From contig CAZPJW010000001.1 in the NCBI GenBank assembly GCA_964587005.1, positions 11,986 to 75,985 of the forward strand: a stretch of DNA of 64,000 nucleotides, given 5' to 3'. Shown here in pieces: positions 11,638 to 62,484 of the stretch. Both the position numbers and the translations under genes were made by a program. Position 1 is the stretch's first letter. Each line of letters opens with the position of its first letter. Below the pieces are notes generated by a model. It searched no databases. It was given only the letters and a program-made list of their open reading frames with translations, and was not told the origin of the DNA. This stretch comes from Candidatus Woesearchaeota archaeon (GTDB lineage Archaea > Nanobdellota > Nanobdellia > SCGC-AAA011-G17 > PNOQ01).

Positions 11638-11652
11638 TTTTTTTATTAAAAA
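11638..11652. terminator. Oligo-T/oligo-A tract serving as a bidirectional archaeal terminator
   Basis: aatttttttattaaaaa lies directly after the stop of the + strand gene at 11637. It also lies directly after the 3' end of the minus-strand tRNA, giving a U5 run on the minus strand. Confidence 0.4.
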
Positions 11653-11778
11653 CGCCGGGACTGGGATTTGAACCCAGATGCCCGAAGGCCCGGTTTGCTC
11701 ACAATCTGATTCGAGATTCACCGATAATACAAATCATTGTAAAATCTCCGGTGCAATACCAGATTATGCGATCCCGGC
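11653..11778 (-). tRNA. Intron-containing tRNA (126 nt), class-II-like architecture; candidate tRNA-Ser(CGA); no encoded CCA
   Basis: Reverse-complement gives acceptor GCCGGGA / UCCCGGC (7 perfect bp) and discriminator G. D arm is GCA-UAAUCUGGUAU-UGC (3-bp stem, long loop with GG). T arm is CUGGG-UUCAAAU-CCCAG. A variable-arm hairpin GCC-UUCG-GGC precedes the T stem. The gene carries about 42 nt more than a mature class-II tRNA. A candidate anticodon loop CUCGAAU sits 37-43 nt after position 26. Exon-intron boundaries were not resolved by hand. Confidence 0.6.
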
Positions 11779-12445
11779 ATACGTATTAATTTTCATTCTT
11801 TTTACGGGATGATTAAACCCAATCAACCTTGCAAACTTTATAATATTTTCTTTTTCCGAAATAACCAAAATATAATTTGTATTCCAATTCTCATTTTTCC
11901 TTACATACATATAAAGATTAGAACTCACTCCAAGAGAAGCCAACAAAAACTTTATTTCTTCAATTCCAGATTTATTTACAGATTGTACATCTATCCTATT
12001 CTTTCCAACATATCCCTCACAATCATAAAAGGCTCTAATAAATTCAATCTTACATTCTCTAGACTCAAAAATAAATTTAGGAATTTCCCAGTTCAAAGTA
12101 CCAAACGTAGAAAGCTCTTTCAAATGAGAAGCAACAACTTTAGAATTAATGTTTACACTAAAATGATTGATCTCTTCCCTAATAGTGGGTACCTTACTAT
12201 AAATTTGACTGAATGTATCAACGTAAAGTTGAGCTAGTTCCAGCACATCTGGATAAAAAGAAATTATATATCTCATAGCATTTCTACTTTTCTCCTTACC
12301 AACAATCAAGCTACCATCACCAGCTAAAAAACCACAAAGTCTAGCTAATTTAATATCATCTGCATTTATCTTACTCTTTTCAAGTTCATGAATTTTCTTC
12401 CATCTTGAAATAGCAACATTCCTATTCCTCTCACAAATATCCATA
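11764..12445 (-). CDS. Double-motif LAGLIDADG homing endonuclease family protein (free-standing; stop codon inside the tRNA)
   Basis: Two LAGLIDADG-type motifs: LARLCGFLAGDGSL and FIRAFYDCEGYVG. Start trimmed to MDICERN (ATG at 12445), which sits about 20 nt downstream of a TATATAAAC box. The track ORF extends further 5' but would overlap aglB. The last five codons plus UAA are tRNA nt 1-15 (...TYAGIA*). Confidence 0.7.
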
Positions 12446-60272: not shown

Positions 60273-61725
60273 AGATGTAAAGTTGTCTACGGGTGGCCCC
60301 TTAATTGCAATACTCAACCAAAAGGACGCACAAAGGCTAAATCTACAAGCACTAGATAGGATAAAAATAACTCGTGGTAAAAAAGAAGTAGTCGCAGCAG
60401 TAGACATATCAGAATCAACAGGAATAAAAAAGGGCCAAATAGGTTTATTCAAAGAACTTATAGAAGAACTTGAATTAAAGAAACCCATTCTATTAAAGAT
60501 TTCAACATCTCAAGTACCAGAATCAATTGAAATAATAAAAAAGAAATTAGACAAAAAAGAATTATCAAAGAAAGAAATTTTTATGGTAATTGATAATCTC
60601 ACAAAAAATGAACTAACAGAAATAGAAATAACTTATTTTGTATCATCCTGTTACCTAAATGGGTTAACCGATGATGAAACTAGATATTTAACTCAAGCAA
60701 TAGTAAAATATGGAGATAAATTAGACCTCAATAAAAAAATAATCGCAGATAAACATTGTATTGGGGGAATTCCTAATAACAGAACAACGATGCTTGTCGT
60801 ACCAATTGTAGCGGCCGCAGGAATCACTATGGTAAAAACAAGCTCTAGGTCAATAACTTCCCCTGCAGGAACAGCAGACACAATGGAGTCGCTAGCAAAA
60901 GTAGAATTCACAACCCCGGAAATAAAAAAAATAATAAAAAAAATAAACAGCTGCATAGTATGGGGCGGAGCAATAGATTTAGCAAATGCTGATGAGAAAC
61001 TAATCAAAGTTCGACACCCATTAAGAATAGATCCAAAAGGTTTAATGTTGGCCTCAATTTTGGCAAAAAAAGCTGCCGTAAATTCAACGCACTTATTAAT
61101 TGACATACCGATAGGAAAAACAGCAAAAATCCAAACAAAAAAGCAAGCAAAGTCATTAAAAAAACACTTTGAAAAACTGGGAAAACAACTAAAGATAAAA
61201 ACAAAGGTCATAATCACAAATGGATCCCAACCTATAGGAAATGGAATTGGTCCAAATCTAGAAGCAAGAGATGTTTTATACATATTAAGAAAAGATTCCC
61301 AAGCACCAAAAGACCTAGAAAATAAATCTATTACTATGGCAGATGAAATATTTAAAATCACAAAAACAAAAGCATCCGCTAAAGATATTTTAAATTCTGG
61401 AAAAGCATATCAAAAATTCATAGAAATAATAGGTGCGCAAAGAGGAAACTCAAAAATTAAGCCAACCGACCTAAAATTGGGAAAACTTCAATCCACTATT
61501 AAATCACCTAGGGCAGGAAAAGTAGTAGAAATAGATAACAGAAAAATATCTAAGATAGCAAGACTTGCTGGATCACCTTATGATAAAGAAGCAGGAGTAT
61601 ATTTAAATATAAAATTAAAAGATAAAATTAAAAAAAATCAACCACTAATGACAATCTACTCAAATTCTAAAGCAAAATTAAATTCTGCAAAATCTGAAGT
61701 TAAAGGCGCAATAAAAATAAAATAA
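60253..61725 (+). CDS. deoA: AMP phosphorylase (thymidine-phosphorylase family with N-terminal extension)
   Basis: N-terminal MITLKAKDVKLSTGGPLIAILNQKDAQ. Pyrimidine-nucleoside-phosphorylase core HCIGGIPNNRTTMLVVPIVAAAG...SSRSITSPAGTADTME. Start moved to the internal Met at 60253 to remove overlap with the permease. Confidence 0.75.
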   Translation: MITLKAKDVKLSTGGPLIAILNQKDAQRLNLQALDRIKITRGKKEVVAAVDISESTGIKKGQIGLFKELIEELELKKPILLKISTSQVPESIEIIKKKLDKKELSKKEIFMVIDNLTKNELTEIEITYFVSSCYLNGLTDDETRYLTQAIVKYGDKLDLNKKIIADKHCIGGIPNNRTTMLVVPIVAAAGITMVKTSSRSITSPAGTADTMESLAKVEFTTPEIKKIIKKINSCIVWGGAIDLANADEKLIKVRHPLRIDPKGLMLASILAKKAAVNSTHLLIDIPIGKTAKIQTKKQAKSLKKHFEKLGKQLKIKTKVIITNGSQPIGNGIGPNLEARDVLYILRKDSQAPKDLENKSITMADEIFKITKTKASAKDILNSGKAYQKFIEIIGAQRGNSKIKPTDLKLGKLQSTIKSPRAGKVVEIDNRKISKIARLAGSPYDKEAGVYLNIKLKDKIKKNQPLMTIYSNSKAKLNSAKSEVKGAIKIK

Positions 61726-61726
61726 A

Positions 61727-61854
61727 CGCCGGGACTGGGATTTGAACCCAGATGCCCTTTCGGGCCTGGCTAACCTGTGTATTATTTCAAGGCTTACACT
61801 TCAGAGAGACTAACTCAGCTGAATCAGTGCAATACCAGATTATGCGATCCCGGC
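61727..61854 (-). tRNA. Intron-containing tRNA (128 nt), paralog of 11653..11778; candidate tRNA-Ser(UGA); no encoded CCA
   Basis: First 27 nt (acceptor GCCGGGA, D arm) and last 31 nt (GGGCAU + T arm CUGGG-UUCAAAU-CCCAG + UCCCGGC + G73) are identical to the first tRNA. Variable-arm hairpin GCCC-GAAA-GGGC differs compensatorily from GCC-UUCG-GGC. Candidate anticodon loop CUUGAAA sits at the same offset (37-43 nt after position 26) as CUCGAAU in the paralog. Confidence 0.6.
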
Positions 61855-62422
61855 ATAAGTTTTGTAATACAACGCTACTTTCATCTATATTTAAATTTAA
61901 CTGATAAGAGAAATATTTATTTTTTTGTATAACATTTTTAACTTCCTTGTTAAATCCCCAAATCTCTTCAATCATATGACTCAATCCCAATAATAACTCC
62001 TTACTAGCCATATGGAAATGGAGATTTCCTCGCTTATTTAATCCTCCATCTGTTAAAAACAAACCAAGAAAAAAAGATTTCTTAATGTCCTTATTTGCTT
62101 TAAGTATCAACTCCGGAACCTTTACTATTGCAGCTTTTTTGCCGAATGGAATTCCAATATTATAAACAAGATAATCAAAGATAGGTTTGGAGTAAATACG
62201 AAATTCATAAAGTATTTTTTTATTTGGCCTATGTCTTGAGTTTATCTTACCCTTTGACCCAAATAACTCAGAGTTAAGGTTTGAGAATAAATCTACATAT
62301 TCCCTCCGGGTATTCCAAAAAGCAATTGAATAAGTAGGATATCCAAAACCATTTTTTCTGTTTGATATAGAACCATCTCCAACAAGCATACCTAAAAATA
62401 AAGCCAGTTTATTCAAATCCAT
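61787..62422 (-). CDS. Double-motif LAGLIDADG homing endonuclease family protein; C-terminal 22 codons read through the tRNA
   Basis: Motifs LALFLGMLVGDGSI and FFLGLFLTDGGL. ATG at 62422 is 21 nt downstream of TTTATAAAC. The ORF terminates at a UGA formed by tRNA nt 66-68, in a different frame from the first cassette. Confidence 0.65.
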   Translation of the reverse strand: MDLNKLALFLGMLVGDGSISNRKNGFGYPTYSIAFWNTRREYVDLFSNLNSELFGSKGKINSRHRPNKKILYEFRIYSKPIFDYLVYNIGIPFGKKAAIVKVPELILKANKDIKKSFFLGLFLTDGGLNKRGNLHFHMASKELLLGLSHMIEEIWGFNKEVKNVIQKNKYFSYQLNLNIDESSVVLQNLCRDRIIWYCTDSAELVSLKCKP

Positions 62423-62443
62423 ATAAGAAAAAAACTAGAAATA

Positions 62444-62484
62444 GTTTATAAATTATTTCTCTGTACGTGACAAGATGACAACTT
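62444..62484 (-). promoter_or_regulatory. TATA box (62444-62452) plus conserved upstream 22-bp motif (62463-62484), copy 2
   Basis: Minus strand reads AAGTTGTCATCTTGTCACGTAC, then 10 nt, then TTTATAAAC, then 21 nt, then ATG. Same spacing as at 12466-12506. Contains a direct hexamer repeat TTGTCA-TC-TTGTCA (TTGCCA-GC-TTGCCA in copy 1). Confidence 0.45.

Follow-up and report, generated by a model that had tools for sequence, protein, structure and literature searches.

Two-intron tRNA-Ser genes as the likely 3' ends of homing-endonuclease cassettes in a Woesearchaeota contig

Archaeal tRNA genes with several introns, or with introns at non-canonical positions, were reportedly described by Marck and Grosjean in 2003 and by Sugahara in 2007/2008. 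Genes of both kinds are known from Thermoproteales, Thaumarchaeota and, more broadly, TACK and DPANN archaea (PMC4090602, PMC4033280, PMC5829648). Woesearchaeota and Pacearchaeota are among the lineages with heavy tRNA gene disruption, and L3-loop alpha4 forms of the splicing endonuclease EndA occur in DPANN lineages with disrupted tRNAs (Kaneta 2018, PMC5829648). HBh', a relaxed form of the bulge-helix-bulge (BHB) motif, has been described for Crenarchaeota and DPANN, and how archaeal tRNA introns transpose "is still unknown" according to the review that covers it (Yoshihisa 2014, PMC4090602). Here, we analyse two split tRNA-Ser genes located within 64,000 nt of Candidatus Woesearchaeota DNA (positions 11,986 to 75,985 of the forward strand of contig CAZPJW010000001.1, assembly GCA_964587005.1), hereafter referred to as the window. 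Each gene is directly preceded by a gene encoding a LAGLIDADG homing endonuclease.

Introns lacking an open reading frame (ORF) may depend on an endonuclease encoded elsewhere. Such collaborative homing is represented by the ORF-less psbA group I intron and the free-standing F-CphI (PMC6083498); mobE/I-TevIII of phage T4 is a related case (PMC2790892). Overall, the data reported below are very likely best explained by regarding the split tRNA-Ser genes as the 3' ends of endonuclease cassettes.

Two introns in each tRNA-Ser gene

Gene 1, tRNA-Ser(CGA), extends from 11778 to 11653 on the minus strand (126 nt); gene 2, tRNA-Ser(UGA), extends from 61854 to 61727 on the same strand (128 nt). As read from the sequence, the two genes have the same acceptor stem (GCCGGGA/UCCCGGC), discriminator base (G73), D arm (GCA-UAAUCUGGUAU-UGC) and T arm (CUGGG-UUCAAAU-CCCAG), and differ in the hairpin of the variable arm, which is GCC-UUCG-GGC in gene 1 and GCCC-GAAA-GGGC in gene 2. 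Variable regions, 12 nt long in gene 1 and 14 nt long in gene 2, with a hairpin of 3-4 bp, are at the short end of the class II range. Anticodon-like loops, CUCGAAU in gene 1 and CUUGAAA in gene 2, occupy RNA index 64-70 in both genes. Apart from the lengths of the variable regions, these features had been noticed in the initial annotation, together with a CCG/CGG versus CUG/CAG covariation, which is real and corresponds to pairs 27-29/41-43 of the anticodon stem. The same annotation had estimated that the genes exceed a mature tRNA by about 42-45 nt, and the excess is indeed 45 nt per gene (31 + 14).

Run at default settings, ARAGORN detected no tRNA anywhere in the 64-kb window, and an Rfam search of the whole window returned nothing either at the gathering threshold or at E ≤ 0.01. 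With a local search and laxer filters, the Rfam model RF00005 matches both genes end to end, scoring 39.2 bits for gene 1 and 35.1 bits for gene 2 (gathering score 29). In both matches, the anticodon arm contains an insertion of 58-60 nt.

The exon-intron organization was determined with an exhaustive solver, in which zero to two introns were allowed at any site from position 26 to the variable arm. Solutions had to feature an anticodon stem of 5 bp that closes a 7-nt loop containing U33 and R37, and each intron had to have a BHB with a 4/4-paired central helix, a 3-nt bulge on each strand and a cut after the second bulge base. A single solution was obtained for each gene. When the 62-nt middle region was shuffled, 7% of the gene 1 shuffles and 4% of those of gene 2 yielded at least one solution that the solver accepted, and 0.7% and 0.4%, respectively, yielded one with a serine anticodon. 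The two solutions are tRNA-Ser(CGA) and tRNA-Ser(UGA), the identities guessed in the initial annotation, and in each the anticodon loop has an intron on either side. The annotation had left undecided whether an intron lies at a non-canonical position or two introns are present; there are two, one of which is at the canonical 37/38 site. ARAGORN agrees on the spliced forms, drawing clean cloverleaves for tRNA-Ser(cga), 81 nt long, and tRNA-Ser(tga), 83 nt long.

All segments of gene 1 are on the minus strand. Exon 1 (11748..11778; RNA index 1-31, tRNA positions 1-30) is followed by intron A, a 31-nt segment (11717..11747; RNA index 32-62) inserted at the non-canonical 30/31 site within a relaxed BHB (HBh'). 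In the central helix, CACC (11753-11750) pairs with GGUG (11722-11719), flanked by GGA and AAU bulges and followed by the inner helix GAU/AUC. Exon 2 (11710..11716; positions 31-37, U CUCGAA) carries the anticodon CGA. Intron B, which is 14 nt in length (11696..11709; RNA index 70-83), is inserted at 37/38 within a BHB in which CUCG (11715-11712) pairs with UGAG (11701-11698), the bulges are AAU and CAA and the outer helix is the anticodon stem. Exon 3 (11653..11695; positions 38-73) includes the variable arm, the T arm and G73. Exons 1 and 3 are 100% identical to residues 2639-2671 and 2678-2725 of the homologous locus L084. The mature anticodon arm is CCGGU-CUCGAAA-ACCGG. The loop CUCGAAU of the initial annotation was correct in the anticodon and wrong in its last base, as position 38 is the A found after intron B (not U70/A70) and the mature loop is CUCGAAA.

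Gene 2, also on the minus strand, is organized similarly. Exon 1 (61825..61854; RNA index 1-30, positions 1-29) is separated by a 31-nt intron A (61794..61824; RNA index 31-61), which resides at the non-canonical 29/30 site in a relaxed BHB (HBh'), from exon 2 (61786..61793; positions 30-37, GC CUUGAA, anticodon UGA). The central helix of this intron pairs GCAC (61830-61827) with GUGU (61799-61796), with UGA and AAG bulges and the inner helix UUCAG/CUGAA. Intron B (61772..61785; RNA index 70-83), a canonical 37/38 intron of 14 nt, has a BHB in which CUUG (61791-61788) pairs with CAGG (61777-61774) and the bulges are AAA and UUA. Exon 3 (61727..61771; positions 38-73) carries the GCCC-GAAA-GGGC variable arm, and the mature anticodon arm is CUGGC-CUUGAAA-GCCAG.

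All four introns have 4/4 central pairs, in a register that is set independently by the exon product. The product fixes the boundaries of intron A uniquely and those of intron B to within 1 nt; as the BHB register removes this ambiguity, intron B lies exactly at 37/38. The two intron types differ in their surroundings. The outer helix of intron B is the anticodon stem, and its inner helix has only 1-2 bp. In intron A, the 3' end of the intron pairs with the 3' side of the D stem and with positions 26-28 to build the central helix, which is accompanied by two 3-nt bulges and an inner helix of 3-5 bp; a regular outer helix is absent. Stem introns of the two paralogues are one base apart (29/30 in gene 2, 30/31 in gene 1). 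A BHB scan demanding an outer helix of ≥2 bp overlooked intron A, and the exon-product-driven solver was used in its place. Insertion of gene 2 intron A at 31/32, which ARAGORN gives on the sequence lacking intron B, was rejected, as it leaves an A·C mismatch and no BHB.

A serine anticodon, a variable-arm hairpin, G73 and a full cloverleaf, the features of class II tRNA-Ser, are found in both spliced genes. Both loci are very probably functional-looking class II tRNA-Ser genes, each predicted to be split by two ORF-less BHB introns. A clean single 37/38 intron with another anticodon, which the initial annotation had named as the contrary outcome, was not obtained. ARAGORN run with the -i option on the unspliced sequences does return models with one long intron and another identity, namely, tRNA-Lys(UUU) with a 51-nt intron for gene 1 and tRNA-Cys(ACA) with a 39-nt intron for gene 2. 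These models fail in several respects. They disagree with each other despite the identical backbones of the genes, and their introns, at 38/39 and 34/35, have no BHB. Moreover, the Lys model uses the variable arm as a strand of the anticodon stem and has an irregular spacing after position 26. Neither model matches any intronless homologue, whereas the products of the two-intron solution correspond exactly to L084 and L057. The chance that the single-intron models are correct is negligible.

Homologues were collected by scanning for the 23-mer shared by the 3' ends of the two genes in one genome per species, which gave 120 loci. Spliced gene 1 is identical, base for base, to the intronless gene L084:2641-2721 (56.1 bits on RF00005), and spliced gene 2 to the intronless gene L057:1362-1444 (58.1 bits), of which further copies are found in L152-L161. 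These intronless homologues score 56-58 bits on RF00005, compared to 35-39 bits for the two split genes. L084 and L040 are located about 50 kb apart on the Woesearchaeota contig JABIBT010000021.1, mirroring the window in both distance and order. The corresponding genome has a Ser(UGA) gene with both introns, which differ by a single base from those of the window, and a Ser(CGA) gene without introns.

In Woesearchaeota, Pacearchaeota and Nitrososphaerales, over 20 distinct tRNA-Ser genes combine a stem intron, at either 29/30 or 30/31, with a 37/38 intron; this two-intron layout is seen in L040, L061, L083, L125, L131, L133-L139, L142, L169 and L172, among others. Four central pairs out of four, in register, are also found in 21 homologues of intron A and in 20 homologues of intron B. 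For instance, both the position and the helix of gene 1 intron A recur in L172, L027 and L169, and the CUUG/CAGG pairing of gene 2 intron B recurs in 8 homologues. Covariation was measured in an alignment of the junction windows of 17 genes with a 29/30 intron. The score obtained for intron A is 0.423, versus 0.156 ± 0.026 in shuffled alignments (0/500 reached the observed value) and ≤0.144 with slid partners. The central helix is paired in all 17 genes (the pair in column 6-22 is GC in 10, AU in 5 and GU in 2 genes), and the inner helix shows changes on both sides in all 5 pairs.

Additional arrangements were noted among the homologues. In L129, L144 and L145, where a tRNA-Ser gene lies downstream of relatives of the endonuclease gene of gene 2, there is an additional intron in the T loop, and the genes in L129 and L144 have three introns. 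The T-loop intron of L144 is inserted at 59/60, is 31 nt in length and has a perfect UUCA/UGAA central helix; in L145, the endonuclease gene is reduced to a 90-aa remnant. Outside DPANN, tRNA-Ser(GGA) genes with 29/30 and 37/38 introns and a GCGC/GCGC central helix are present in L060, from a metagenome-assembled genome (MAG) of an unclassified archaeon, and in L082, from a Nitrososphaerales MAG. Both are located downstream of a Cbf5-like gene, and no endonuclease gene is present. As the same layout occurs in these genomes, the 29/30 site appears to be either old or widely transferable. In three Nanohaloarchaea-type MAGs (L012, positions 2237-2333, L094 and L076), an intact tRNA-Ser gene is followed, 50-100 nt downstream, by a repeat of its last ≥23 nt, corresponding to part of the T arm and the 3' strand of the acceptor stem. 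The repeat looks like the attachment-site repeat left by an integrated element, or like a tRNA fragment.

Endonuclease genes and cassette organization

The genes preceding gene 1 and gene 2, both intact, free-standing LAGLIDADG genes of the minus strand, are referred to as HEG1 and HEG2. HEG1 (11764..12444, 226 aa) matches PF14528 (E = 8.5e-19) and is directly 5' of gene 1, and HEG2 (61787..62422, 211 aa) matches PF14528 (E = 2e-12) and PF03161 and is directly 5' of gene 2; both PF14528 matches are above the cut-off. The LAGLIDADG motifs are LCGFLAGDGS and FIRAFYDCEG in HEG1, and LGMLVGDGS and LGLFLTDGG in HEG2, and acidic residues are kept in both motifs of each protein. In the PDB, HEG1 matches the intein endonuclease PI-PfuI (1dq3) and I-DmoI, and HEG2 matches the intein endonuclease domains 7qsu and 2cw7. 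The two proteins are only distantly related (35% identity over 62 aa).

Both endonuclease genes read into the tRNA. The stop codon of HEG1, TAA (11764-11766), is located 15 nt inside gene 1, in the D loop. In HEG2, the last 22 codons are made up of exon 1 and intron A of gene 2 together with the first bases of exon 2, and the anticodon UGA (61787-61789) doubles as the stop codon. In a co-transcript, RNase P cleavage at the 5' end of the tRNA would strip the stop codons from both endonuclease mRNAs. The overlap varies among relatives; for instance, the stop codon is 4-37 nt upstream of the tRNA in L061 and L016. Because of this variation, the overlap is probably incidental.

Association with tRNA-Ser genes is a recurrent feature of both families. 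A 226-aa protein identical to HEG1 (P0015) is encoded on 7 contigs. HEG1 relatives precede the tRNA-Ser(CGA) genes of L169 and L172, each of which has a 30/31 and a 37/38 intron, and tRNA-Ser(GGA) genes with (L061, L016) or without (L173) introns. The HEG2 family includes 14 database proteins, most of which end in the same tRNA-encoded tail. At 23 of 24 metagenomic loci of HEG2 relatives, a tRNA-Ser gene, nearly always UGA, has its start within -65 to +5 nt of the point where the tblastn match to HEG2 ends. Taken at the sequence level, the adjacency of endonuclease and tRNA-Ser genes is evidently not coincidental.

Some HEG1-family proteins merit separate mention. The N-terminal ~160 residues of P0016 correspond to P0017 and its C-terminal ~66 residues are identical to HEG1; this protein is a recombinant between two alleles of the family. 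P0020, P0023, P0024, P0027 and P0032 read into sequences resembling other class II tRNA genes, such as a CCGGUCUCAAAAACCGG-type arm, possibly from tRNA-Leu(CAA), and the family may target tRNA-Leu besides tRNA-Ser. Back-translation of the tails reading into such other tRNAs, possibly Leu, was too ambiguous and was not used.

The cassette is approximately 0.75 kb in length and consists of a promoter-like spacer, an endonuclease gene reading into the tRNA and, at the 3' end, the intron-bearing tRNA. In the gene 2 cassette, a 60-nt spacer (62423..62482, minus strand) with the TATA-like sequence AATTTATAAA lies upstream of HEG2 and marks the left end of the exchanged block (61727-62482). Endonuclease-bearing alleles (window, L147, L123) conserve this spacer, which bears no relation to the 41-44-nt one present when the endonuclease is absent. 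At the same chromosomal site, relatives carry either the cassette or just an intronless tRNA gene, the sequence of which equals that of the exons.

Comparisons with two genomes highlight the sharp borders of the block, which mark it as horizontally transferred. The window and the distant L123 exhibit 50-70% identity in the flanks, increasing to 72-80% in the final ~140 nt of the upstream gene (62619-62485). Identity is 88-99% from approximately 62480, just past the stop codon of the upstream gene, to 61727, and 30-40% thereafter. In contrast, the window and its close relative L147 are 88-96% identical in the flanks and only 58-79% identical in the body of the endonuclease gene, and their tRNAs carry different sets of introns. 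The gene 2 unit, made of spacer, endonuclease gene and split tRNA, has an evolutionary history distinct from that of its flanks.

Alleles with and without endonuclease were compared at the syntenic Ser(UGA) locus, which was sampled via homologues of the 217-aa gene located upstream. Endonuclease genes are accompanied by introns A and B in the window and in L040/L123, by intron B only in L147-L149 and by intron A only in L164/L165. L150, a partial contig, was assigned to the L147-L149 lineage. When the endonuclease is absent (L057, L035, L152-L156, L157-L161, L162 and L166), an intronless gene with identical exons is found 41-44 nt after the upstream gene. P0050 and P0052, in which a gene spacing of 126 nt implies no endonuclease gene and little room for introns, were left out of the count. 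Introns are found in 4/4 lineages with and in 0/6 lineages without the endonuclease (Fisher p = 0.0048). Among all the distinct DPANN-type genes collected, intron A is present in 20 of the 26 genes with endonuclease and in 4 of the 17 genes without (p = 0.0013); for the presence of any intron, the figures are 23/26 and 8/17 (p = 0.005). These p-values, including that of the syntenic locus, are indicative only, given that the sets were differently sampled and come from related lineages. Orthologues of gene 1 without introns, found in L024 and L084, also have no endonuclease gene upstream, and the L024 tRNA is approximately 20 nt from AglB.

Endonuclease gene and intron-bearing tRNA are probably mobile together. 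In this model, the endonuclease would cut alleles that lack it, and double-strand-break repair would copy the endonuclease gene and the introns together; the cassette would thereby be the vehicle spreading BHB introns. In a more specific and rather doubtful version, corresponding to collaborative homing, the enzyme would cut the intronless tRNA-Ser in the anticodon arm, and introns at 29/30 or 30/31 and/or 37/38 would interrupt the target and protect the carrier. Because exons are identical in alleles with and without the endonuclease, any target located wholly inside the tRNA must span an intron site.

Besides the restricted value of the p-values, other observations weigh against co-mobility and intron-given protection. 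Divergence between the gene 1 cassette and L169 equals that of the flanks; in the absence of discordance, the signal of horizontal transfer is limited to the gene 2 cassette. Furthermore, ORFs in which both LAGLIDADG motifs are readable adjoin intronless tRNA-Ser genes in L132, L137 and L173, and introns of the same type are present without endonuclease gene in L083, L073, L092 and L027. The intronless genes in L132 and L137 argue that immunity given by introns is not universal. Such loci, and the Nitrososphaerales loci L060 and L082, which also carry the introns without the endonuclease, favour the alternative that introns and endonuclease genes are unrelated neighbours. According to this alternative, the 5' edge of tRNA-Ser is a landing site at which insertion itself breaks the target, and ordinary DPANN introns are dragged along by co-conversion or shared ancestry. 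Since the whole spacer is replaced in endonuclease alleles, the break may have occurred anywhere from the upstream gene to the tRNA's 3' half. However, exons at the syntenic locus are identical and introns alone differ, and intron A and/or B accompany the endonuclease in all four lineages that carry it and in none of the six others. Moreover, the two intron sites are 8 bp apart in the inverted repeat of the anticodon arm, which would be a plausible 20-22-bp LAGLIDADG target. The unrelated-neighbour alternative is the less probable one, with a weight that is far from trivial; joint mobility of endonuclease gene and split tRNA remains the preferred reading.

Homing endonuclease genes usually go through a cycle in which they invade, become fixed and decay. 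Truncated or frameshifted endonuclease genes are found beside retained introns in L145, L164 and L165, and such decayed genes fit the cycle.

Endonuclease alleles may also differ in the tRNA promoter. The nearly invariant C-terminal sequence of the HEG2 family, SYQLNLN, is encoded by TATCAGTTAAATTTAAATA (61888-61900, minus strand), 34-46 nt upstream of gene 2. Diverged relatives conserve the nucleotides of TATCAGTTAAATTTAAATA, which include a TATA-like box plausibly spaced from the tRNA. Alleles with endonuclease lack the original tRNA promoter, TTTTTAAATA, which lies at -31..-22 when no endonuclease gene is present. The HEG2 ORF may carry a replacement promoter.

The region 3' of tRNA-Ser(UGA) (61725-61727) is variable as well. 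In the window, an AMP-phosphorylase-like gene ends 1 nt from the tRNA; an additional 166-aa ORF is present in L147 (L147:3878-4440), and a 2.6-kb insertion in L040 (L040:438-3048). Directly 3' of the tRNA genes, on the minus strand, there are a T5 run (11648..11652) after gene 1 and the T-rich tract TTTATTTTATTTTTATT (61710..61726) after gene 2, both read from the sequence and likely to serve as transcription stops. The surrounding genes, among them AglB/STT3, the AMP-phosphorylase-like gene and genes for CARDB and PKD surface proteins, indicate an archaeon with a G+C content of approximately 32%. Its closest named relatives are MAGs labelled Candidatus Woesearchaeota.

Precursor folding and proposed splicing

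In the proposed pathway, the precursor would be transcribed, the archaeal splicing endonuclease EndA would cut each of the four bulges behind its second base, and an RtcB-type ligase would join the three exons to yield tRNAs of 81 and 83 nt. A broad-specificity, DPANN-type EndA is presumably needed for intron A, as its motif is relaxed and its position is non-canonical. The two BHBs of a precursor overlap, with the central helix and the 5' bulge of intron A occupying stem positions 27-30. BHBs with common nucleotides cannot coexist, and splicing must therefore be stepwise. In RNAfold ensembles of both full precursors, the probability of the intron A central helix is 0.94-0.98 (0.97 in gene 1), and that of intron B is near 0. 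Intron A would be removed first, as favoured by thermodynamic folding.

In the Ser(CGA) lineage, the D loop is complementary to the 5' part of intron B. In gene 1, residues 11760-11765 may pair with 11703-11708 (RNA index 14-19 with 71-76). The pairs are AAUCUG/CAGAUU in gene 1, AACCUG/CAGGUU in L169 and AAUUCG/CGAAUU in L172, corresponding to three compensatory changes in three orthologues. The gene 1 helix stacks under the intron A central helix in the minimum-free-energy fold. We hypothesize that it may stand in for the outer helix of intron A, making excision of intron A dependent on intron B. Pairing of the D loop with intron B was also considered as a general feature of all lineages (combined p 9e-6, confounded in the UGA and GGA genes, in which the YCUGG of the D loop resembles the anticodon loop with which the 3' part of intron B pairs anyway) and was kept for the CGA genes only.

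Three results tell against ready excision of the introns. The putative outer helix of intron A is paired in 51% of the cells in the 17-gene alignment and is not conserved, and the motif is consequently classified as a relaxed HBh'. To form, the intron A BHB must melt part of the D stem, hence the need for a permissive EndA. Finally, RNAfold predictions for precursors from which intron A has been removed assign the intron B BHB a probability of only 0.01 (gene 1) or 0.21 (gene 2), which we read as a limit of thermodynamic prediction for tRNA precursors, yet as a real weakness in silico.

Such features could denote dead or dying tRNA genes, disrupted by insertions that arrived with the endonuclease genes, in cells relying on other tRNA-Ser copies. 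A relaxed intron A BHB that competes with the D stem, a thermodynamically disfavoured intron B BHB and endonuclease ORFs overlapping the tRNA genes are what decay might look like. In contrast, the exons are 100% identical to those of intronless orthologues, and the introns diverge with compensatory changes that preserve the BHB helices. The four junctions are all in exact BHB register, against a chance expectation of approximately (6/16)^4 per junction. The architecture is kept in more than 20 diverged lineages, T-runs follow both genes, and the split gene of the syntenic locus stands in place of the intronless one, not next to it. Decay is very unlikely, and we regard both genes as functional-looking.

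Because the mutually exclusive BHB folds require refolding, the LAGLIDADG proteins could also act as maturase-like RNA chaperones, instead of or besides cleaving DNA. They are possibly encoded on the same transcript as the tRNA, and LAGLIDADG maturases are known for group I introns. We know of no maturase for EndA-spliced introns. Acidic catalytic residues are kept in both motifs of both proteins, and loci with a decayed or missing endonuclease gene (L145, L164/L165, L083) maintain the same introns. A chaperone role seems improbable, and a DNA endonuclease that moves with the split tRNA is the interpretation retained here.

Comparison with known systems

The arrangement of introns had been singled out in the initial annotation as a notable case, an evaluation that does not hold, as it is not exceptional for DPANN (Kaneta 2018, PMC5829648). 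The tRNA genes themselves are two further examples of multi-intron archaeal tRNAs, and the endonuclease cassette is the new part. The genes resemble known multi-intron archaeal tRNAs in having ORF-less BHB/HBh' stem introns along with a 37/38 intron, in being missed by standard finders and in calling for broad-specificity EndA variants. The tRNA part shows no essential difference; the fixed link to an upstream homing-endonuclease gene has no published counterpart within the literature searched. No description of homing-endonuclease genes attached to BHB-intron archaeal tRNA genes was found in the literature searched, the coverage of which was incomplete.

Two consequences may be drawn. Because default ARAGORN and Rfam searches miss such genes, genomes carrying them appear to lack decoders for Ser(CGA) and Ser(UGA). 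An endonuclease family dedicated to the 5' edge of tRNA-Ser would offer a testable route to how ORF-less archaeal tRNA introns spread. Defined reagents are at hand, namely, two proteins of ~220 aa and natural targets, intronless or intron-bearing, that differ by the introns alone.

Archaeal rRNA introns are related to the cassettes by their endonucleases. I-DmoI, I-PorI and the 16S introns of Thermoproteales (PMC4496867) also associate archaeal LAGLIDADG proteins with BHB introns and have a patchy, homing-like distribution, and HEG1 is homologous to I-DmoI. In the rRNA genes, the ORF is located inside a long intron. In contrast, introns of the tRNA-Ser genes (12-37 nt) are too short to encode a protein, and the ORF is placed at the 5' edge of the tRNA.

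In Caldiarchaeum subterraneum, the presence or absence of an intron in tRNA-Thr(GGU) within the population tracks an adjacent mobile element, and gain at the DNA level has been proposed (Sugahara 2012, PMC3293823), much as intron content tracks the endonuclease gene here. The Caldiarchaeum element is a 1.8-kb recombinase-encoding unit, transposable or plasmid-like, with duplication of a tRNA fragment. The tRNA-Ser genes differ in having just one homing-endonuclease gene beside them and in showing no duplicated tRNA fragment.

SegB of phage T4 (PMC2330249) is a free-standing endonuclease encoded among tRNA genes that drives the preferential inheritance of its own gene and of the neighbouring tRNA region. 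It differs from HEG1 and HEG2 in belonging to the GIY-YIG family, in residing in a phage genome and in having no introns associated with it.

Further parallels are psbA/F-CphI and mobE/I-TevIII, in which a free-standing endonuclease gene likewise flanks a gene with an ORF-less intron, absence of the endonuclease goes with absence of the intron, and the block is inherited as a whole. Interruption of the enzyme target by the intron has been demonstrated for psbA/F-CphI-type systems, whereas for the tRNA-Ser cassettes it is a hypothesis. In those systems, the intron is of the self-splicing group I kind and resides in a protein gene of a phage, and the enzyme is of the Endo VII or HNH type. Here, their counterparts are protein-spliced BHB introns, a chromosomal archaeal tRNA gene and a LAGLIDADG protein. 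If the hypothesis holds true, the cassettes would represent an archaeal version of collaborative homing based on protein-spliced introns, in which BHB introns are mobilised in DPANN.

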